A stretch of 64,000 nucleotides of DNA, taken from contig OX597837.1 in the NCBI GenBank assembly GCA_951406725.2, forward strand, positions 16,864,001 to 16,928,000, written 5' to 3'. Positions 13,200 to 50,270 of the stretch are shown one piece after another. The DNA comes from Octopus vulgaris. Taxonomy: Eukaryota. Numbering within the stretch: position 1 is the first letter of the stretch; every line of letters starts with the position of its first letter. Under the pieces are notes generated by a model. The model was not told the origin of the DNA, did not search any database, and worked only from the letters and a program-made list of their open reading frames with translations. The position numbers and the translations under genes are program-made.

Positions 13200-14140
13200 C
13201 TTCCACTATCTCCAACACTCTGTCTCCTTCCTCGACATTTCGGTTAGCATTCTTCACTCCACTCTTACCACCTCCATTCACTACAAACACACAGACTCAC
13301 ACTCATACCTCAACTTCTCTCCCTCCCACCCAGAACACACCAAGCTTTCCATCCCCTATTCCCAATTCCTCCGTCTACGTAGGATCTGTAGTGACGACCA
13401 TGACTTTGAGACTCAGTCTCAACGTATGGCTCACCACTTCATCCTACGTGGATACCCCCTCACCACTATCCACACCGCCCTTGCCAGAGCACGTTCCGTG
13501 GACCGTGTATCTGCTCTCTCTCCCCGAACCCGCCCTGTAGTCTCCCGCCTCCCTTTTCCCCTCACTTACCACCCCACGACCCTACCTCTCCAACGCACCA
13601 TTCTTCGAGCTTTCCGTCATCTCCAGTCCGACCCGTCCACTTCACACCCCTTCCCTAACCGACCCCTCCCCTCTTTCAAACGAGCCCATAACCTTCGAGA
13701 CCTTTTGGTCCATAGCTCCTTCCCTGACCCTACCTCCCAACCTGGCTCGTTCCCCTGCTCCCGCCCACGTTGCCGCACTTGCCCTTACCTCTCCAACACC
13801 ACCCTCCTCACTGGCACCCATCATCGACCCTATCGCATCATCAACTCCTTCACCTGCACCTCAAGCAATATTATCTATTGCGTCTCTTGCTCTCTCTGCC
13901 ATTCCCTGTACATCGGACAAACGGGACGCCGCTTGGCTGACCAGTTCGCGGAACATCTTCGTGACATCCGCCTTGCGAACGACACACCGGTCTCACGCCA
14001 TTTCCGCTCCACCGGTCACTCGTTGCAACACCTGTCTGTGTTCGGTTTGTCCTTACACAGAGGCCATCCGGATTCCCGTTTGCGCCGTGAACAGGAATTA
14101 ATCTTCTCTCTTCGCTCTTATACGCCATTTGGTCTCAACT
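13200..14140 (+). pseudogene. Penelope-like RT C-terminus/thumb plus GIY-YIG endonuclease (open over this span, N-terminus missing)
   Basis: FLDISV...YKHTDSHSYLNFSPSHP...SIPYSQFLRLRRICS; CSRPRCRTC; FTCTSSNIIYCVSCSLCHSLYIGQTGRRL; REQELI...PFGLN, all within ORF 13030-14607. Confidence 0.93.
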
Positions 14141-14730: not shown

Positions 14731-14768
14731 TCTTTCTGTTGAAGAGCGTAGGCTCGAAACGTTAAAGA
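14731..14768 (+). ncRNA. Minimal type I hammerhead motif in a Penelope pLTR (A6 changed to U)
   Basis: tcttt-CTGTTGA-A-gagc-gtag-gctc-GAAAC-GT-ta-aaga. Confidence 0.7.
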
Positions 14769-37795: not shown

Positions 37796-38236
37796 CTAGC
37801 AAAGATACCCGGTGTTGTTCGGGATTAACATAGTATAGTTTGTATACACACACACACATACATACGCATATATATATATATTTTATAAAGGGCTTAGTAA
37901 AATAAATTACTTTGCCACATACTGAACTCATTAGAAATAGCAGCCAAAAAAAAAATTTTTTTTAGCCATTTCTAATACTTAAAGAAAATTTCTCTCAGAT
38001 AGTGTTTACTCAAAATAAACACTATCTGAGAGAAATTTTCTTTAAGTATTAGAAATGGCTAAAAAAATTTTTTTTTTGGCTGCTATTTCTAATGAGTTCA
38101 GTATGTGGCAAAGTAATTTATTTTACTAAGCCCTTTATAAAATGTAATATTTTGAATTCGCCTTAAATGGTCCCTTTACATACTGAATACTTGGTGAAAT
38201 TGATTAATAATTAATTAATTTTACCCTCAATTGTTG

Positions 38237-38277
<41 letters not shown>

Positions 38278-38960
38278 CAGTTATGTTGAAACAGGAAAGT
38301 GTAGCATTGACGGCAAAACATTTGTGGAGTAAATTTCGAAGCTTTGCATAAACGACAATTTGAGTTTAGTACATCAATTTGGATAGAATAATCATTTTTA
38401 TATTAATGGGATGGATCATACCTGAGAGCAACTCCAAGTACTATGAAGATCGAATTTGTATGTAGTCTGCTTCTGAGAGCTATTCTATCGGACCTCTGTG
38501 TAATCTGGCGTGCTAAACATTGTTTTAATGATTCAGCATTAAGTGCTGCAACATGCCTTTGCTAATCTTGAAAAAGTCACATTTCCATTCTGTCTTGAGA
38601 CTCCATTTGATGTACTGCAGCATGCCTTTGCTAATCTTGAGAATGTTTCATCTCCCTTCTGTCTTGGAACCCCATCAGACATGCTGCAACATGGTTTTGC
38701 TGATGTTGAGAAAGTCTCCTCTCTTTTCTCTCTTGACATTGTACTTGACGTGCTGCATCATGTGTTTGATGATCTTTGGAAAGGGTCATGTCCCTTATTG
38801 AGATTCTATTTGACGTGCTGCAGCATGCTGTTGCTGATGTTAAGAAAGTTTCGTGTTCCTTATGTCTTGAGACTCTCGCCTTCGATTTTCTGCACTCCCC
38901 ACTTGCTTTATAAGTGTTTCTGGAGAGATTAAGTTTTTTCTTTGGTGGCATATTGTTTTT
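37796..38960 (-). mobile_element. Helitron derivative: 3' end at 37796 and N-terminal repeat region at 38520-38950; 5' boundary not determined
   Basis: Minus strand cccgaacaacaccggg hairpin plus CTAG|T; MPPKKKLNLSRNTYKA followed by ~62-nt repeats (ERRLSQHQQNHVAA-like). Confidence 0.55.
37880..38143. repeat. Near-perfect palindrome, ~128-bp arms, 7-nt loop
   Basis: ttttataaagggcttagtaaa...gatagtgttta-ctcaaaa-taaacactatc...tttactaagccctttataaaa. Confidence 0.97.
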
Positions 38961-39433
38961 CAATATTTTAAACAAAAAATTATGAACATAGAAAAAATAT
39001 ACATTAATCTGTATTTTTGTAAGCAGTTGAGTGTAGTATGTCTATATTTCTGTATGCAGTGTAAATTAACCAAACATAAGCAAATTGTAAATACCTTGCA
39101 ACTTTTCAACTGCTGCGATAGTTATGAACTGTTAATTGAACGGCAGATGTGTATTTTTATATAACTTGGACTTTTCACGTAATTGTTTTTTATCAAGAGT
39201 TTCAGTTCCAGGCGTTCTCGTTACATATGTATATGAATATGTAGATGTATGTGTGTGTTTAATAATGTACGTAACGAGCGCGCAAACACACATACACTCA
39301 CAGACACATACATATTCATATACAAAATGTGACGATACGCACACATACACTCTCACATACAGTCACATACGCCACAGAAACCGGGAAACCAGGCCCATGA
39401 ACCTGGCTAGGCTTGAAAAGGGCGACGTTTATC

Positions 39434-39477
<44 letters not shown>

Positions 39478-39480
39478 GTA

Positions 39481-39545
<65 letters not shown>

Positions 39546-39969
39546 GCACTTCTTTGTTACGTCCCTTTTTGTGTTACATTTTTTTGCTCGTTTACCCCTC
39601 TACGAGTTATTTTATTTTAATTCTCTCGTAGAAAGGCCTAGCTTGACCTTACGTGTTCTGTCTCTGCCTTCGAAACACGTGTCTGCTAGCGACAGCTGAT
39701 GAAGGGGATTTTTCCTTGTGTAGCATGTCCTGTACTTCGTTTTTCTGCTGCACATAATTGTTTTTCCCGTTTTCGTTTTCGTTTCGTCTTGTTCCACGTC
39801 TCTGTCCTTCTGTTGTAACAAAATGTCTTCTCCGTTTTCGTTCTGTTGATTTTTTCGTTTTCTTGTGATGTCCTGTACTTATATACATATTTATATATGC
39901 ATGTATATATACATGTAGATGTCGGTACGTACATATATGTTTGTATGTATGCATATATTTTATTTATTA

Positions 39970-40014
<45 letters not shown>

Positions 40015-40020
<6 letters not shown>

Positions 40021-40721
40021 AAATAATAAGAGTGAAAAATTGAATGTCAATTTAAAATCAGTGGCCTATCATATTGAAAAATCTGAAGATTCAGAAAAAT
40101 TATATTACATATATATAAGAGGGATGACCACTAAGTGGACATCCATTATGCTACAGGTAGACCCCATATTGTCTGACCACTAAGAAAAGATTGTTCTCAA
40201 TAAAATTCAGCAAACGCCAGAACGTAAGCGAGCAAGACAAATGAAACGATACAAAATATAAAGATTAATCACAAACCCAGCTTCATTGTTACCACTTACG
40301 TAATACTTACGTAAATGTCCGCAATTCATCAGTGTGATCGTCATAGGAAAATATAATTTTCATAACTATACATGAGACGTTCGCATGAAATTGAACATGC
40401 ATATAGTTCTACCAATTACATTTGGGGTTATATTTCAAAAGTTTTCGTTTTGGTGTGCCAAAATACCAGAAATAATTCTACAGAAAATAATTCTCTGCCG
40501 TGAATTGTGTTGGTTAGAGAACATAGTTATATAAATTTAGATAATAAGGGAGCAGAATTGAATATTAATTTGATTAATATCAATTTAAAACCAGTGGCCT
40601 AGCATATTGAAACATCTGAAGATTCAGAAAAATTATATTACATACATATAAGAGGGATGACCACTAAGTCTGGCGTTTGCTGAATTTTCTTGAGAACAAT
40701 CTTTTCTTAGTGGCCATCTCT

Positions 40722-40725
<4 letters not shown>
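40015..40725 (-). mobile_element. (TA)n-flanked pLTR-like composite with direct and inverted internal repeats
   Basis: 40020-40136 resembles 40540-40668 (direct); 40178-40221 is inverted relative to 40669-40713; contains a hammerhead motif. Confidence 0.65.
40268..40338 (-). ncRNA. Type I hammerhead motif, GAAG variant
   Basis: Minus strand atcaca-CTGATGA-attg...caat-GAAGC-tgg-GTT-tgtgat; perfect 6-bp stem I. Confidence 0.72.
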
Positions 40726-40787
<62 letters not shown>

Positions 40788-40790
<3 letters not shown>

Positions 40791-40938
40791 GCTTGCTTAC
40801 CAGCGACAGAGTTCCGGGTTCAGTCCCACTGCGTGACATCTTGGGCAAGTGTCTTCAACTATAGCCTCGGAGCAACCAAAACCTTGTGAGTGGATTTGGT
40901 ATACGGAAACTCAAAGAATCCCGTGGTATATATGTATA

Positions 40939-40983
<45 letters not shown>

Positions 40984-41227
40984 GTGTGTGTGTATGTGTG
41001 CGTGTGTGTGTGTGTTTGTGTGTCTGTGTTTGTCCCCCTAGCATTGCTTGACAAAACGATGCTTGTGTGTTTACGTCCCCGTCGTTAAGCGGTTCGGCAA
41101 AAGAGACCGACAGAATAGGTACTGGACTTACAAAGAATAAGTCCCGGGGTCGATTTGCTCGACTAAAGTTAGTGCTCCAGCATGGCTGCAGTCAAATGAC
41201 TGAAACAAGTAAAAGAGTAAATGAGTA
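40788..41227 (+). mobile_element. SINE family 2, 5'-truncated
   Basis: Matches 24100-24499. Confidence 0.85.
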
Positions 41228-41319
41228 TATATATATAAGGTTAAAAAGGAACACACGAGTTGATATATATGGAAAAAGTCAAGACAGAAAATGCTAAAAT
41301 AATTTTATAAAAAACATTT

Positions 41320-41355
41320 CAGTACCAGTTTCAGTCATTGGGACTTTTTCAACTG
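41320..41355 (-). ncRNA. Minimal type I hammerhead, U3-A8 variant (inverted copy)
   Basis: Minus strand cag-TTGAAAA-agtc-ccaat-gact-GAAAC-tg-GTA-ctg. Confidence 0.7.
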
Positions 41356-42004
41356 TAAGTATGGAAAACAATTAAATTTTGGAAAAATTAAAAGGAAAGT
41401 TTTTTAAAAGAATATTTGCATAGTGTTCAAATACAAGTGGCATTTTTCTTGTTTTTGCCTGTTTCTCTCTGTCTTGTTTAGTCTTGTGGGTTCGAGGTCC
41501 TTGTGAATTCTTTGTAGGGATGAAGAAGAAGAAGAAGAAGAAGAAGAAGAAGAAGAAGAAGAAGAAGAAGAAGAAGAAAAAGAAGAAGAAGAAGAAGAAG
41601 AAGAAGAAGAAGAAGAAGAAGAAGAAGAAGAAGAAGAAGAAGAAGAAGAATGCGTGAGTGCCATGACAGTAGTATGCTGAATGGTCAACTGCCCCAAAAG
41701 TGACCCGCTGTGGATGGTAGTAGTGATTGAATTCCTGAAACATCTCTTTTGAATGTTTTGTTTATAAAATTTGTGTAGTTGTTATTTTAAACAGCAATAG
41801 TGGTAAAGTTATGAAGGAGGTGGCGGAAAGGGGGAAGACAAAAAAGAAGAAGAAGAAAGAGAAGAGAGAATAAGAAGAAATGTAGGTAGTAGGATAGTAG
41901 TAAGGTGTTAAATGGTCAAGTGGCCTAACATTGACTCGTTATGGATTATAGCAGTGATTGGGACTGTTTTTTAATGAATTCTTGGGAATCTCTTGAGTGT
42001 ATCA

Positions 42005-42026
42005 TCTGTGTATATATAAGGCAGGA

Positions 42027-42078
<52 letters not shown>

Positions 42079-43679
42079 TGAATGTAGTTTATGCACATCC
42101 ACAAATTAGCACGCATGTCGCTCAAATTTTAGGAGGACATTTGTCACGATCCTAGCTGTATTTTCGTCGAATTATTTTACCCCGAGGCACCCGCGAATAG
42201 CGGTAAATAATTTTGAGCCATAACTTCAATTTTCACGGCGGAGAAACCCACTGTAGTGACGTCATTATTGTTTACAAAACATGAATTAAATCCCCTTCTA
42301 GCGACGGTGTAAAGAGAAGGAGGGAGAGAGAGGGAGAGAGAGAGAGATAACAGATTTTTTAAATTTCGTCTTTACTGAGTGATTGACAGACAAAAACAGA
42401 CAGACAGGTGTTGTTATGTATGTATGTATGTGTGAAAGGCTTCAATCACAGACACACACACGAGCATGTGTGTGTACAAAACACATGCTTGTAATGTGTG
42501 TGTTGACCGTATATATATATATATACACAATATAAACGATATTCTCCGTTTCTCCACAACTAATTTCCAAATTAGCTGAATCCGTTGCTCTACTCAGCGA
42601 TATATAGCTGGTCGTGCGTGAACATGGGGGATAGCAGAGGTTATCAGAGCAAAAGATCTACGTGTTGAAGATAGACACGCTCCTTAGCAAACGATCAGCT
42701 ATTATTTTGTAAACAATGTTTCGAAACTATTCATGTTTTCGAATGGAGAGATCTGACTCTCACATCTCTGCGGGAGAAGGTAGGTTTCTCTATTCTTGTT
42801 ACAAAACTTACGTCCGGATGCCAAATTTGTTTCAATTGATGGTATTACTCGGGTAGGAAGTGGTGGTGGGACAGGGGCAGGGGCAAAGGCGTGCAAAAAC
42901 ATGTATGCAATAGGTGTATGTACGTATATTTTGTGTGTGTGTGTTGCCCATATATATATATACTTAGTTGTGATCTGAACAGATCGGGGGGCCCTTTTGG
43001 GCGTTCTAGTTTTCTTGCTGGAAGGGTTCCCAACCCATGGGCAAAGTGGGGTTACATGATGGGGGTGGTGTTTTCAAAAGGGTTGGCATATGCAACCTGA
43101 TCACCTCTGCCGATCAAACTCCCAACCCATGCGCTCCCGTGGCGACACTGATTCTGCAGAACTGGGTTGGGTAAGAAAACCAGCTTTAAAGCATAAATAT
43201 AGATGTTTTTGAATCAGCAATGTTCGGTTAAGTCCTATTTGGGATGAAAAATCAATAAACTGATTCCTTATGGGATTTTCCATTTAATCAGAATTTAAAA
43301 AATCGATAAACCGATTCCTTATAGGACTTCCCACTAAAATTGGTTACACCCCATTTTCAACCATAACGTCCACCAATTTTGATGTATTTTGTTCAAACTT
43401 GATGCCAGCATTACTTAGGACTCATGGGATCTTTGAATGCTTTTAGTTCTCCAAAAAACGAAAAAAAAAAACAATCGATGAGTGGAAAAAATCGATAAAC
43501 CGATTCCTTATGGGATTTCCCAATCAAATTTTCTACAAAATTTCACCCAAAAGTTTACCAATTTCAACGGATTTCACTCAAATTTTACGTCGACGTTACT
43601 TAGTTTGCTTTGAAATAAAGAGCTTGATTATCTTAATAATCCTAACTTAATCCCGAGCAAAGCCGGGCTATACTACTAG
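42005..43679 (+). mobile_element. Non-autonomous Helitron inserted in the Penelope inverted arm
   Basis: A|TCTGTGTATATATAAGG start; cccgagcaaagccggg hairpin plus CTAG|T end; the uninterrupted site is seen in the mirror arm at ~44500-44530. Confidence 0.92.
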
Positions 43680-45064
43680 TTTTTTTATATTTGCGTGTGT
43701 ATTTGTGTTATACTAAGACCGTGGTGGATATGTCGTTTGTTGTAGACGCGTTCAAAAGGGGTCTGTATCTTGTAATAAAGAGAGTCTCTTTACTTATTCG
43801 TTGGCTACAGGTTGTATCGTCCCTGAATTGGTAGAGGGGAAAAATTCTGAAGCTTGGATTTTTATTATTGGCGAGAATGAAGCCTTCGACAACATCATTC
43901 AAAACATTCCCCTGCTTAAAAAAGGACCACAGAATGAACTTAATCTTCCAAACACACACCATCATAAAAAGCAAGAGACAGCCCAAATCTATGAAAAGTC
44001 TCCTAACACAAGCCCGAATACGCTCAACAACACAGAAGCCGACAGTAAAAAAAATGCGGAAGACCCAACTATAAGATATGCGTCAATTTAATTGAGGGAT
44101 CAGCGGTCTCCTTCAAACAGGGACAACGTTCGTTTCACAGTGAAAAGCAACTTCACATGTGCTTCGGAGAACCTGATATACGCACTAACCTGCTCTGGGT
44201 GCCAAGAGCAATACATAGGCCAAACAAAAAACAGTCTACGTAAAAGAATGGCTCTGCACAGATCCCAGATCCAAATTCCCCAAAACAGAACAATAGCATT
44301 CAGCCAACTATAGACATTTGCGCCAATAATAAAATTCCAAGCTTCAGAATTTTTCCCCTCTACCAATTCAGGGACGATACAACCTGTAGCCAACGAATTA
44401 GTAAAGAGAATCTCTTTATTAAAGATACAGACGCCTTTTGAATGCGTCTACAACAAGCGACATATCCACCACAGTCTTAGAATAACACAAATACACACGC
44501 AAATATTTAAAATGATACACTCAAGAGATTCCCAAGAATTCATTAAAAAACAGGCCCAATCACTGCTATAATCCATAACGAGCCAATGTTAGGCCACTTG
44601 ACCATTTAACACCATACTACTATCATACTACCTACATTTCTTCTTATTCTCCCTGCTCTTTCTTCTTCTTCTTCTTTGTCTTCTCCGCCATCTCCTTCAT
44701 AACTTTACCACTATTACTGTTTAGAATAACACACAAATTTTATAAACAAAACATTCAAAAGAGATGTTTCAGGAATTCAATCAGTACTACTATCCACAGC
44801 GGGTCACGCACGCATTCTTCTTCTTCTTCTTCTTCTTCTTCTTCTTCTTCTTCTTCTTCTTCTTCTTCTTCTTCTTCTTCTTCTTCTTCTTCTTCTTCTT
44901 CCCTACTAAGAATTCACAATGACCTCGAACCCACAAGACTAAACAAGACAGAGAGAAACAGGCAAAAACAAGGAAAATGCCACTTGTATTTGAACACTAT
45001 GCAAATATTCTTTTAAAAACTTTCCTTTTAATTTTTCCAAAATTTAATTGTTTTCCATACTTTA

Positions 45065-45100
45065 CAGTTGAAAAAGTCCCAATGACTGAAACCGGTACTG
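45065..45100 (+). ncRNA. Minimal type I hammerhead, U3-A8 variant (sense 3' pLTR)
   Basis: cag-TTGAAAA-agtc-ccaat-gact-GAAAC-cg-GTA-ctg. Confidence 0.75.
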
Positions 45101-45182
45101 AAATGTTTTTTATAAAATTATTTTAGCATTTTCTATCTTGACTTTATTTTCCATATATATATATATATATGGTGCTATGTGA

Positions 45183-45458
45183 AGTCGCATGACTCAGTGG
45201 TTAGAGCGTCGAGCTTATGATCGTGAGGTTGTGAGTTCGAATCTCGGACTGAGCTACGTATTGTGTACTTGCTCCAGTTCACTCAGCAGTATCGGCCTTT
45301 GCCTTTCCCTTGGCTAACACTGGTGACGTGGAGAGGGGAGGCCGGTATGCATGGGTGACTGCTGGTCTTCCATAAACAACCTTGCCGGGACTTGTGCCTG
45401 GGAGGGTAACTTTCTAGGTGTAATCCCATGCTCAGTCATGACCGAAGGGGTTCTCAGC
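45183..45458 (+). mobile_element. tRNA-derived SINE family 3
   Basis: tgactcagtggttagagc A-box, gagttcgaatc B-box; body matches 48703-49010 in reverse. Confidence 0.85.
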
Positions 45459-45488
45459 ATATATATATATATATATATAGATAGATAT

Positions 45489-45564
<76 letters not shown>

Positions 45565-45999
45565 AACTTACTTAGAAGTGGATGCGTGCGTTCTATCATA
45601 TAATAACAAAATTATAAATAAAACATATGCATATATACATACATATATGTACGTACCTACATCTATATGTATATATACATGCATATATGAGTACAGGACA
45701 CCAAAAAAAAAACGTCGAACACAATGAAAAACGAAAATATAAACATAAAACCAAGGAAATGGACATTTTTCTTAAACAACGAAAAAATAGAGTACAAGAC
45801 ATACAACACAAGAAGATTGTTTTTACTCTCCTGTTTTTGTTACCATTTTTACCCCTCCGCAAAAAAATCTCAAATTTTATTTAATTTGCTTTTGCAGGTA
45901 GGACTGTTTCAACGAAGTCGTGTCTCGCCTTTACCTTCGAAACGCAGAGTAGATGAAACAGAGGCGGCTGAAGAAGGGGAATGTTCCTTGTGTGGGTGC

Positions 46000-47190
46000 T
46001 AAAAGGTTCCTGGTTTTGGGTAAAAGAACATACAAGAGGATCGGTAAATTATGATTTTATTCAACATATTCTCCGCTCAAATTCACATATTTATTGCAGC
46101 GGTCTTTCAGTTTTTCTAAACCCTCAGAATGTTTGGCGTGTAGCCAGGCTTTTCGCGACACCCTTAAAACCAGGAACTTCTCAACACCTCTTCGTAGATT
46201 ATTATATCTAAATGAAATATGCTAGTATTGCTCGAGAATTCCATCTTGCATTACTTAAGTTGGGTATTTTTTGAAACTTTATAGTAGGAAATTTTCCGGT
46301 TTCTTCAAAGAAACAAAAAACTCTGGTCAAATGAAATAGAAATTTTATGTCATTTCTCCATCCTGCTGATTCAGTAATCTTTTCTTCACCATTGTTGAAA
46401 TTAGTCTAGAGTTTCTCGTAACTACTTAGAAACTCTGGGATGAATGTATATTCAATATTGGGAGATGACTTTTTTCTCCAAGTACGTTATCCATTACAAC
46501 ACGAAGAACTCTGTCAATGATATGATGCTGACAACCAATAAATGGCGGTTTTTCAAACACTTTTGGGCAAATAGTCTTTGGAATTGAATGACAATACCAT
46601 TTCCTTTCCCAATGTTCACACTCGTTGTATCAGCGACAATCATCTTTACACAGTTCCATAAATTGTATTCATATAAAACAGCTGTTATTCCTTTCTAAAC
46701 AGTATTGGCTTTTCCCTCTGGTAATTGGAGTGCATCTAACTTAACTTCTCTCTGTTCATTCAAAATGCAATGACCAGTTTTCTAAATGTAGTGTTTTCTT
46801 CATTTTCTTTTTTAGTTTAACAGCTTCTTTGATAGTCGGTCTGTAAATACCAGATTGGGAAGGAGTCTCGACATTTATTCTCTCTTGAGGTAATTGTCGA
46901 CAAACTGTTGCTGTTTCAGGGCTGATAGCTTGGAAGATATTACTAACTTGGCTGCAGTTCCAGTTTTGCTATACTTCCTCCTTGTTTGTGTGGATTCTTC
47001 ATCTGATTTTTCGGACTCTTGATATTCACTTTCGGTCTTTGCTTCAGACGTTGACGGTGACACTGGAGTTGCTCTGGTTGAAGTTGACATTAAGAATACT
47101 TTTCTTTTGGATGGATAATTTTGGAACTGGCTGCCTTTCCAGTTGTAGACACACAGGATGTCGAAATATCGTTCACTAGATGACAATGGC
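46000..47190 (-). pseudogene. DDE-type DNA transposase remnant with CxxH motif (superfamily not resolved)
   Basis: Minus strand LDALQLPEGKANT..., MIVADTTSVNIGKGNG, FIGCQHHIIDRVL at ~46500-46740. Confidence 0.65.
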
Positions 47191-47244
47191 ACTCTATTAT
47201 TATTATCATCATAATCATCATCCTCCTCCTCCTCATCATCATCA

Positions 47245-47294
<50 letters not shown>

Positions 47295-47349
47295 TTTATA
47301 CTATATGGGTTACGATATTATGAAAATAAAAAAAAGAATGCATAAAAAA

Positions 47350-48694
47350 TATCACTGGAAGTTCGTGTGTGCCCCAACTATTTGCCTTTCTTCCCGACAA
47401 AAACGAAGCCTTGTATCATCGTCTCCTGTCTTCTGTGTGTGATTTAAGGCCAAATTGTTGACTTGTAGCCTGTCTCATGGACTCTGAAAAAGCTTTCCAT
47501 CGTGCATTTGTTTCTCTATTTCCGTATTCAGAAGTAGTTGGGTGTGTCTTTCATCTCGGATAGTCTTGTTGGCGGATATGTGCACTTGGTGAGAGTATGA
47601 GTTACAACACAGATGAAAGTTTTCAGCTTAAAATTAAGTGCTTTTGTGCTTTAGCATTTTTGCCAATTGAAGACGTTGTCAATGTATTTGAAGGTTTGTT
47701 TGACGATGAAGACATCCCTTCTGAGTTTATCACATTTGTAAGGGGGTGCGGTCCTCGTCGGCGAAGAGAAACCCCACATTTTCCTATACAACTCTGGAAT
47801 GTACGTCTTAAAGGACTTGCCAAAATCAAATAATTCTTTCGAAGAGTTCCAAAATTCTTTGCGCTCATCACTAACATTCACACATCCAAATTTGTGGAAA
47901 CTATGCACTGCCCTTAAAGCTGAGGCGGGATTAAGCCAGACAAAAATTGCACACATTCGACGTAGAGAAAAAAACCTTTTCTACTCTAGGCAAATGGCCC
48001 GAAATTTTTGGGAGGGGGCCAGTCGATTTGATCGACGCCAGTCCGCAATTGGTACTTAATTTATCGACCCCGAAAGGATGAAAGGCAAAGTCGACCTCGG
48101 CTAAATTTGAACTCAGAACGTAAAGACAAATGAAATACTGCTAAGCATTTCTGCCAGTTAACCGCCTTAGACCTATCAAATTATTGATGCACAACTGAAG
48201 AAGCTAGTTCAGGAATATCAAAATGAAAACCCTCTGCAATCTTTAAGAAGTATTGTACACAATTTGTCTTAAGAAATTTTTTTTAAAATAAATTAAACTT
48301 TCTTATCCTAACTCTACTTCACAATGTACACGCTGTCAATTTTCATCCTATTGCCATAATAAAATGTGTGCTAAAATTTAATCTTTTCTTTCTTTATCCC
48401 AAATTATATTATTTTTGAAATTTTGTGATGAGTCTTTTCCATAGATTCTTGCTCGATGGGAGGACATTAAAGTGATCCCATCTCAATTTAAGTAGATTCT
48501 ATTTCAACTTCAGACTCTCTCACTCTTCCCTCTCTCTCTTCTTAAGGCTTGAGAAACAGACAGACAGACAAATTAAATAAACATGGTGATTATTAGTGGG
48601 GGAGGCTTATATTGGAAGTCTGTCCATGGGTGGAATTTACCATGGTGGAATATACCGTGGTGGAATTTACCTATGGTGGAATTTATCTAGAACC
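47350..48694 (+). pseudogene. MULE-type transposase remnant with repeat-containing terminus; SINE family 1 inserted at ~47975-48170 (minus)
   Basis: LLPDKNEALY, MDSEKA, GCVFHL, ALAFLP, FPIQLWNV, PKSNNSFEEF; four ggtggaat(t/a)ta units then tctagaacc at 48629-48694. Confidence 0.8.
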
Positions 48695-48702
48695 ACACAT
48701 AT

Positions 48703-49010
48703 GCTGAGACCCCCTTCGGTCATGACTGAGCATGGGATTGCACCTAGAAAGTTACCCTCCCAGGCACAAGTCCGGCCAAGGTTGTTTATGGAAGACCAGC
48801 AGTCGCCCATGCATACCGGCCTACCCCCTCCACGCCACCGATGTTATCCAAGGGAAAGGCAGGGCCGTACAGCTTGGCACCTGTGACGTCACTGAGTGAA
48901 CTGGAGCAATATGAAATAAGGTGTCTTGCTCAAGAACAAAACACACAGCCCGGTCAGGGATTCGAACTCACACCTCACGATCGTAAACTCGACCACTGAG
49001 CCATGCGCTT
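48703..49010 (-). mobile_element. tRNA-derived SINE family 3
   Basis: Minus strand gcgcatggctcagtgg...gagttcgaatccc. Confidence 0.85.
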
Positions 49011-49086
49011 TCACCACATACACACATACATACATACATACATACATACATACATACATACATACATACATACATACATACATACA

Positions 49087-49320
49087 TACCGTAAATCCTC
49101 GAGTATAGTCCGCCCTTGAGTATAATACGCAGGGGATTTTTAGGGGGGTGTACCACTGAAAAACCTAAACCTTGTGTATGATAAGCACCCCTTCTCTAAC
49201 TTGAGTCGTGCGTAATTAAGCCAGCAGCACCTAGTCGAACAAACACTTCCTTGCATGCATAATACAATAATGGTGATGTTCTTAACTGTTATATCGGAAT
49301 GTAAATACGTTTGCAAATTG
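49087..49320 (+). mobile_element. Terminal fragment of a TA-targeting DNA transposon (Tc2/pogo-like TIR)
   Basis: ta|ccgtaaatcctcgagtatagtccgcccttgagtataatacgca. Confidence 0.5.
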
Positions 49321-49321
49321 G

Positions 49322-49670
49322 ACAAACACTCCCTCTGGCAGGTGCCAGAAATGTAGCGAAGACTTTGCCTGGCTGGTTGTAATGCCATAGTTTCTTGTTG
49401 ACGTCTTTTCTTGTCATTCCATTTCTTCTCTCTCCCTCTATCACTCCTTTGTGTTCCCTCTTTTACGGAACGTCGCCAATCTCCAAGGTTGCTGGCAACT
49501 GCTTCCCAGTTGCTAATATTGATGTCGCAGGCCTCCATGTCCCTTTTGCAAACATCCTTGTATGAGATGGCTTGGACATGTTAGCCGTATGGAAGATGGC
49601 AGAATCCCCAAGGACATACTCTACAGAGAGCTTGCTAGGGGCACTAGGTCTGTGGGAAGACGTTCATACG
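49322..49670. mobile_element. RTE LINE 3' fragment with inversion
   Basis: Plus strand RWLGHVSRMEDGRIPKDILYRELARGTRSVGR (49562-49660); minus strand YKDVCKRDMEACDIN..WEAVA..WRRSV (49322-49562). Confidence 0.85.
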
Positions 49671-49748
<78 letters not shown>

Positions 49749-50270
49749 GAGTGAGAGAGCAGTGCATCCCATCTGGGGCAAAATATACGAAGCCCAGTAT
49801 AGCCATCATGACTATCCGTCTGATAAGGGTACTCTAGGCACATGCATCACAACCATATATGCGCGACATGGTGATCTCCTATCAAGATAAACAGCACATG
49901 ACCTTGCAGGTGGGGCCCAGTTAGAATTTTCTTCTGGTCGAGTAGCCCATCTTGCTCAAAAGGTCCCCGAATAATGGTTGTTTGAGGATGTTGAACGAAA
50001 CACCCATGTTTCCAGAGGTAAATTATTCAAACACCAAAGAATCCCTCTAAACACATGGCTATAATGCTCCCCCACTACTTCTGCTCGTGATTAGAGCTAC
50101 ACATATCGTCAGCCACTAAGAGATATGCTCAACTGGTTAAGGTCAAACAACTGACAAGCAAATCTGTGGTATTTGGCAGAATATTTGCTGTAGCCTATCT
50201 TTTACACCAAGACAAAACAATGTACATGATAGCACTTCCAATCAGTTAAGATCAGAAGCCATGAGAGCCT
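49749..50270 (-). mobile_element. Non-coding (TAA)n-associated interspersed element, copy 1
   Basis: Highly similar to 54556-55087; abuts (ATT)n at the same nucleotide (att|gagtgagagagcagtgcat). Strand is tentative. Confidence 0.8.

Follow-up and report, generated by a model that had tools for sequence, protein, structure and literature searches.

U6 snRNA joined at the predicted hammerhead cut suggests germ-line cleavage by a U3-A8 ribozyme of an Octopus vulgaris Penelope-like element family

The 64-kb stretch of the Octopus vulgaris genome analysed here (contig OX597837.1, positions 16,864,001 to 16,928,000; hereafter the window, numbered from its first letter) contains a dead, broken, 5'-truncated Penelope-like element, both arms of which carry a hammerhead motif with the core UUGAAAA, that is, with U3-A8 in place of C3-G8. 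The question raised by this locus is whether a ribozyme with such a core ever cut its RNA in the animal. We put a probability of about 0.78 on the reading that the ribozyme of this family, broken as the element is here and with U3-A8 for C3-G8, was active in the germ line and cleaved its RNA after A17, as suggested by genomic copies of the U6 small nuclear RNA (snRNA) joined to family elements at exactly that bond. The initial annotation of the window had missed both the joined U6, which is the stronger evidence for function, and a possible U3-A17 mispair. The two motifs are placed as follows:

45065..45100, + strand: minimal type I hammerhead of the right arm; core 45068-45074, stem I CAG/CUG, stem II AGUC/GACU, GAAA, palindrome ACCGGU
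41320..41355, - strand: minimal type I hammerhead of the left arm; same core, stem III decayed to ACUGGU

In the right arm U3 lies at 45068 and the cut is predicted after A17, between 45097 and 45098; in the left arm U3 lies at 41352 and C1.1 at 41322.

U6 junctions at the predicted cut

A direct search of the 2.8-Gb genome for U6 next to the element gave 14 matches, eight of which are U6 joined to a family element. All eight (8/8) have their junction at C1.1, with exactly five T directly on C1.1 and no extra letters; as the element reads GGUA before the cut, there is no microhomology with the U6 junction. The eight matches correspond to seven loci on five contigs. Because a common rearrangement links two of these loci, which lie 355 kb from each other, they were counted once, leaving at least six independent events; the sequence following the cut places at least four of them in the window's subfamily. 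Rfam U6 scored above threshold in 5/7 junction loci, the other two being short pieces. When U6 was sought within 30 nt of a downstream anchor (range about -2 to +26), 6/6 matches were at C1.1, while the control with an upstream anchor at -38 to -10 gave no match and that at -61 to -33 gave a single one, which was not U6. For junctions spread uniformly, six events over about 87 positions give p ~2e-12. Among the 57 loci fetched of 174 with a U6 3' end, we found none in which U6 is joined to the element elsewhere than at C1.1. Inverted chimeras carry U6 in both arms, indicating that U6 was part of the copied template.

U6 is not the only partner at this bond. At one locus (L250) a piece of 18S ribosomal RNA (rRNA) is joined at C1.1 (Rfam SSU, 57.6 bits), and at two others (L248, L272) the sequence joined to C1.1 and the 3' end comes from the 5' region of the element's own open reading frame (ORF), an arrangement expected if reverse transcription had passed through the junction of a circular template. 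Head-to-head copies that both start at C1.1, with a short foreign spacer between them, were seen at L247 and L276; the L276 spacer matched no Rfam family.

Beyond this family, we followed three other U6-partner families (recurrent or inverted), and in 3/3 the junction falls at the predicted hammerhead cut. Their cores are C3-G8, U3-A8 with GCAA for GAAA, and A3-U8 as read by eye. The U3-A8 family with GCAA (L373; G000:C10:96758534-96758666 and C23:13824481-13824573) has A17, with U6 at the predicted cut in two loci. The family read as A3-U8 by eye (L357; G000:C6:133037413-133037592) has an additional U within GAAA and a stem II of 2 bp, with U6 joined after UU. At two further loci (L363, L365), apparently from sister families, U6 stands at a comparable position.

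The main rival explanation, which itself also requires a cut, holds that the ribozyme cuts and that U6 is then attached not through ligation of RNA but by the reverse transcriptase (RT), which jumps templates from the cut 5' end. Template jumping seems common: most listed U6 retrocopies directly precede the 5' ends of repeats that we take to be short interspersed element (SINE)-like, with variable T runs and extra letters, and at L265 C1.1 is joined to such a SINE-like sequence with T's at its end. Against this stands the uniformity of the family junctions, 8/8 of which have exactly five T and no extras, compared to five T in 5/29 other U6 loci (Fisher p=3e-4), as fits mature U6 with its cyclic phosphate (PMC6789731). 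We consider attachment by template jumping improbable. Our literature searches found no paper on U6 at Penelope hammerhead cuts; Lunse et al. 2017, which may cover such U3-A8 motifs, lay outside their reach.

The U3-A8 core within and beyond the family

Aligned, the two arms read CAG-UUGAAAA-AGUC(n5)GACU-GAAA-C..G-UA-CUG, with a stem I of 3 bp and a stem II of 4 bp, and a descriptor that left positions 3, 7 and 8 free matched these two sites only in the window. The alignment and the descriptor confirm the Penelope-type minimal hammerhead with core UUGAAAA that the initial annotation had placed in both arms. Its stems, described there as intact, are so for stems I and II, and stem III reads AC-cg-GU in the right arm only; the left arm has AC-ug-GU, a CpG-type change with which self-pairing of the hexamer becomes weaker (-3.2 instead of -8.3 kcal/mol). 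ACCGGU is the family consensus as well as the right-arm sequence, and its cofold yields a dimer. Motifs paired at 3-8 appeared in 2/40,000 dinucleotide shuffles of 44900-45160 and in 0/20,000 shuffles of 44436-45160, which speaks against a chance match. An Rfam scan of 38000-50000 (E<=5) returned no hammerhead family among its 64 matches, and strict CUGANGA searches would, as had been predicted, miss the motif. The closing pair of stem II in the window is A10.1-U11.1 instead of the usual G-C, and the window's subfamily is without an extra base after A9; G10.1-C11.1 and that extra base are consensus trends (PMC4209133), from which several motifs of related elements outside this locus likewise depart.

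That U3-A8 should be the family consensus was a check named beforehand, and the consensus indeed carries both changes: the exact family context gave 825 matches, with U3-A8 in 754, U3-G8 in 24, C3-A8 in 14, C3-G8 in one and other combinations in 32. Independent decay is expected to produce about 0.5 double changes, compared to the one C3-G8 seen. With any stem II allowed, 3,414 matches were U3-A8 and four C3-G8. We rejected a C3-G8 subfamily inside the family, since L129 and L132 each occur once, a frequency that decay would produce; the C3-G8 matches L130 and L131 are not family members and lie in another repeat, near which no ORF was matched. The hammerhead of that repeat shares CAG/CUG and ACCGGU and has a 6-bp stem I.

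A younger sister family, which has open frames of 784 aa, carries the motif in 23/29 loci, always as U3-A8, with its stem II closed by G-C, not A-U, and with a different, longer loop. A10.1-U11.1 in one sister subfamily and G10.1-C11.1 in the other make up a compensatory double change in stem II; stem I does not vary between the two and is therefore uninformative on covariation. A search for a subfamily with the short loop and a G-C stem II found none; at 10.1, 97 matches depart from A, and most of these are G-U, which fits decay or an intermediate. In contigs of four sequencing runs from four organisms no change above 5% was seen at positions 3 or 8 (one run had a depth of 3, and contigs drop rare variants). 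Contigs of four runs that we guessed to be RNA cover the motif; contigs cannot show ends.

The presence of the double change in both copies had been taken as a sign of selection. This argument fails, as both arms come from one template and the scattered single changes in genomic copies fit decay; selection is readable only across families. We scanned 89 outside loci (377 kb) encoding related proteins, with positions 3 and 8 left free. All 31 motif matches (31/31; several rows repeat one family) were Watson-Crick at 3-8, with 27 C-G, two U-A, one A-U and one G-C, the reversed sequence gave no match, and a stricter scan added one further U-A. An RT tree of 28 rows, midpoint-rooted for drawing only, placed the family in a clade with 100/100 support in which 8/10 rows have C3-G8, and on this tree U3-A8 requires four separate changes, at least three of them forced by strong branches. 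The covariation outside the locus and the C3-G8 relatives in the tree uphold the claim that the change is compensatory relative to C3-G8, and by this comparison of sequences the core swap is a real, derived and recurrent covariation. Two metagenome contigs carry Penelope-associated A3-U8 and G3-C8 cores (L188:1969 and L195:117); positions 3 and 8 are thus seen in each of the four Watson-Crick combinations.

The 3-8 tertiary pair is part of the active fold in the account given in PMC3884650. Natural U3-A8 hammerheads, compensatory and active in vitro, are reported in passages of Perreault et al. 2011 (PMC3088659), and about 1,300 U3-A8 matches in the Cercyon elements of Schistosoma mansoni in passages of Cervera and de la Pena 2014 (PMC4209133). 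The core swap, even the heptamer UUGAAAA, is thus already published for Penelope-like elements, and the octopus is a new host of a known variant.

Weighing germ-line cleavage and its possible mechanism

Several observations weigh against germ-line cleavage by this ribozyme, or limit the test that suggests it. Two chimeras had been met by chance before the test of the cut site was devised, positions -9 to -4 were checked by eye only, among 100/106 matches, and the whole-element comparison covered 57/174 U6 3'-end loci only. Plain 5' truncation at the cut is without clear excess (46 matches at the cut and 28 at a control position); one recurring internal deletion accounts for 11 of the 46, at least seven more are decayed or deleted full copies, and two have U6 snRNA in front of C1.1. 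No long copy starts at the cut among 22 mapped (0/22), and the six of these that keep an upstream pseudo-long terminal repeat (pLTR) all (6/6) extend through the whole hammerhead, which argues that the usual template was uncut. In a context of 60-96 nt the hammerhead is not the minimum-energy fold (z +0.55 to -1.18), and a U3-A17 pair, which would extend stem I, is predicted to be favoured over the open core by 2.3 kcal/mol, with a predicted probability of 0.71 in the right arm. The core of L146, which has an extra U and was missed by the descriptor, may be U3-G8, and one family in Fig. S3 of Cervera and de la Pena appears as U3-G8 (PMC4209133). Finally, in the relevant passages on an anole Penelope-like element, hammerhead mutants left insertion in vitro unaffected (PMC11167929).

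Could the motif then be without catalytic activity and serve as a structural signal, for binding a protein or for forming dimers, with the C1.1 end produced by a protein nuclease or by an RT stop at the helix? The stems of 3, 4 and 2 bp are weak, U3 may mispair with A17, minimal Penelope hammerheads have low activity in vitro in the passages of PMC4209133, and plain truncations show no excess at the cut. Yet the junctions fall at N1.1 in four families with unrelated stem sequence, the tertiary 3-8 pair of the active fold (PMC3884650) covaries in 31/31 outside matches, and cutting of the anole element needed the core and not the endonuclease active site, according to passages of PMC11167929. 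A dead signal is in our estimation slightly less probable still than template jumping. The view that a ribozyme already without function acquired U3-A8 through two neutral changes towards A+T that became fixed in a master copy draws on the very A+T-rich region, on both changes being from G/C to A/T and on the non-independence of the arms, and is very improbable given that from one subfamily to the other stem II changed by a compensatory double step with the core unaltered, that U3-A8 arose repeatedly with no mismatched state among the 31 outside matches, and that U6 junctions mark the cut in U3-A8 families, the junction data largely refuting it.

Cutting, ligation and retrotransposition would be the simplest reading of these junctions. 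Transcripts of tandem pLTR-ORF-pLTR copies would carry two motifs, which likely pair through the palindromic ACCGGU or fold with help of the element's protein. A minority of these transcripts would be cut and, as hammerhead cleavage leaves a 5'-OH, would carry this group at C1.1. An RtcB-type ligase, which joins U6 (five U and a cyclic phosphate) to RNA with a 5'-OH in the account of PMC6789731, likely joins this end to the cyclic-phosphate 3' ends of U6, of an rRNA fragment and perhaps of the element's own RNA, and the RT of the element would then copy the chimera into (TA)n sites. Cutting was probably inefficient, because U3 can also pair with A17 and most copies were made from uncut RNA. 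We infer from the predicted folds that the U3-A17 pair may act as a brake on cleavage, a counterpart of the C3-G17 pair described as inhibitory in PMC3884650.

A wider reading, to which we give somewhat less than an even chance, is that minimal Penelope hammerheads, including those with swapped cores, cut in the germ line, that the host's RNA ligase captures the 5'-OH product (with U6, with rRNA or, with the element's own RNA, as circles), that U6 retrocopies provide a genome-wide activity map and that the U3-A17 mispair is a built-in brake by which most template RNA stays uncut. If true, U6 retrocopies would map the in vivo activity of ribozymes that are nearly silent in the tube. The junction record matters more than the core swap, which alone is ordinary: U6 at one bond in at least six insertions, together with the matching bond in three families with three cores, offers a cheap test of germ-cell cutting from sequence only. 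The junctions also point to RtcB-type ligation, a step needed for the proposed circular RNA intermediates.

The broken locus, its lineage and known systems

The element in the window is composed of the following parts:

43876..45155, + strand: main copy, a 5'-truncated Penelope-like element (end of the ORF and 3' region with hammerhead), ending in (TA)n (tblastn, self-comparison)
44092..44435, + strand: remnant of a broken GIY-YIG endonuclease (Pfam PF01541), with stops and frameshifts
41263..42004, - strand: 3' part of an inverted 5'-truncated copy, matching 44512-45160
43680..43879, - strand: 5' part of the inverted copy, matching 44315-44512 and abutting the start of the main copy (self-comparison)
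41238..41263, - strand: 'tail' of about 26 nt, in the left arm only
42005..43679, + strand: later insertion of 1.67 kb splitting the inverted copy, starting TC and ending in a hairpin and CTAG, between A and T

Against the 784-aa RT and GIY-YIG frame of the sister family the main copy has 47-56% identity with frameshifts (tblastn), the DNA being about 70-85% identical, and its GIY-YIG remnant scored 23.0 bits for 44092-44310 (cut-off 22.6). The 3' part of the inverted copy is 93-97% identical to the main copy outside a microsatellite. The insertion between its parts we take to be Helitron-like. The arms differ by 3-7%, so the insertion of the Penelope-like element is old. In sister-family tandem copies the ~26-nt tail continues into the ORF's beginning. 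The two arms had been described as both pLTR copies; both do carry the motif, and they are the inverted and the main copy of one insertion, not tandem pLTRs. Their motifs point apart on opposite strands, so that no dimer can form within one transcript at this locus. With the motifs so placed and the ORF broken, the window locus itself is likely inert. Adjacent inverted copies and one-sided tails are known in Penelope-like elements from passages of PMC8557442.

The sister-family ORF encodes the RT, followed by a C-x4-C-x2-C linker and GIY-YIG, and the nearest homologues of its 784-aa frame carry PF00078 and often PF01541. The linker motif CX2-5CxxC (Neptune type) is thus present in the sister ORF; it is decayed in the window copy, and passages of PMC8557442 give the cysteine linker as common to Neptune and Nematis. 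The RT tree contains no named reference proteins, and placement with Neptune or Nematis is outside its scope; the nearest named protein relatives are from bivalves. In the sister family the pLTR and the 784-aa frame are separated by about 1.2 kb that looks coding (L125:3680-4870) and starts at an ATG about 120 nt after the cut; this may be an ORF1 of its own or an N-terminus put out of frame by a frameshift. Some Penelope-like ORFs (L133-L141, P0031, P0047, P0052 and P0106) stand in bacterial metagenome-assembled genomes, where they are likely host contamination.

Elsewhere in the window, an ORF remnant at 13201-14130 belongs to a second, distant Penelope-like element (27.5% protein identity), which ends at about 14732-14765 (+) in a hammerhead-like motif with the core CUGUUGA, in which U replaces the conserved A6. 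For this motif pattern the genome gave 26,755 matches; among the first 100 listed, position 6 is U in about 77, A in 20 and C in three. The most abundant family that we saw may carry a non-canonical core. Five diverged 69-bp tandem units lie at 38526-38869.

Among known systems, the anole Poseidon element PAc comes from a paper that we take to be Frangieh et al. 2024. It has, as here, a pLTR hammerhead near the ORF start and the tail, with uncut RNA as the main template. Its core is C3-G8 and the relevant passages report no RNA-seq reads that start or end at the cut (PMC11167929), whereas the octopus genome holds junctions there. In its 5' truncation, and in the C-terminal GIY-YIG and cysteine linker of its sister family, the octopus element resembles the endonuclease-positive (EN+) Neptune/Nematis type described by Craig et al. 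2021 (PMC8557442). The EN+ traits found here are pLTR tandems, an inverted 5'-truncated copy and a one-sided tail; passages of the same paper give inverted adjacent copies, one-sided tails, partial tandems and (TA)n targets for EN+ elements (PMC8557442).

The U3-A8 motifs of S. mansoni Cercyon are, as far as the corresponding passages go, the same in being type I with short stems and a palindromic stem III, near the 3' end of the element and in pairs on opposite strands, and family Sm4 has the identical heptamer UUGAAAA (PMC4209133, Fig. S3). The octopus motif differs in its A-U pair at 10.1-11.1, in having no extra base after A9, in host and lineage, and in the genomic scars of cutting; its H17 is an A that can pair with U3, whereas in the two U3-A8 motifs listed for S. 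mansoni this base appears to be U or G. The motifs of Perreault et al. 2011 share the core covariation, in passages that make no tie to Penelope-like elements or to dimer-dependent minimal motifs (PMC3088659).

The closest parallel to the junctions themselves lies in the U6/LINE-1 chimeras formed by RtcB (Moldovan et al. 2019, PMC6789731), in which, according to the passages concerned, U6 with a short U tract is joined without homology to the RNA of a 5'-truncated retroelement and the product is retrotransposed. In those chimeras the 5'-OH ends are scattered and come from an unknown nuclease, whereas in the octopus all the junctions fall at one bond, the predicted ribozyme cut, in a Penelope-like carrier.

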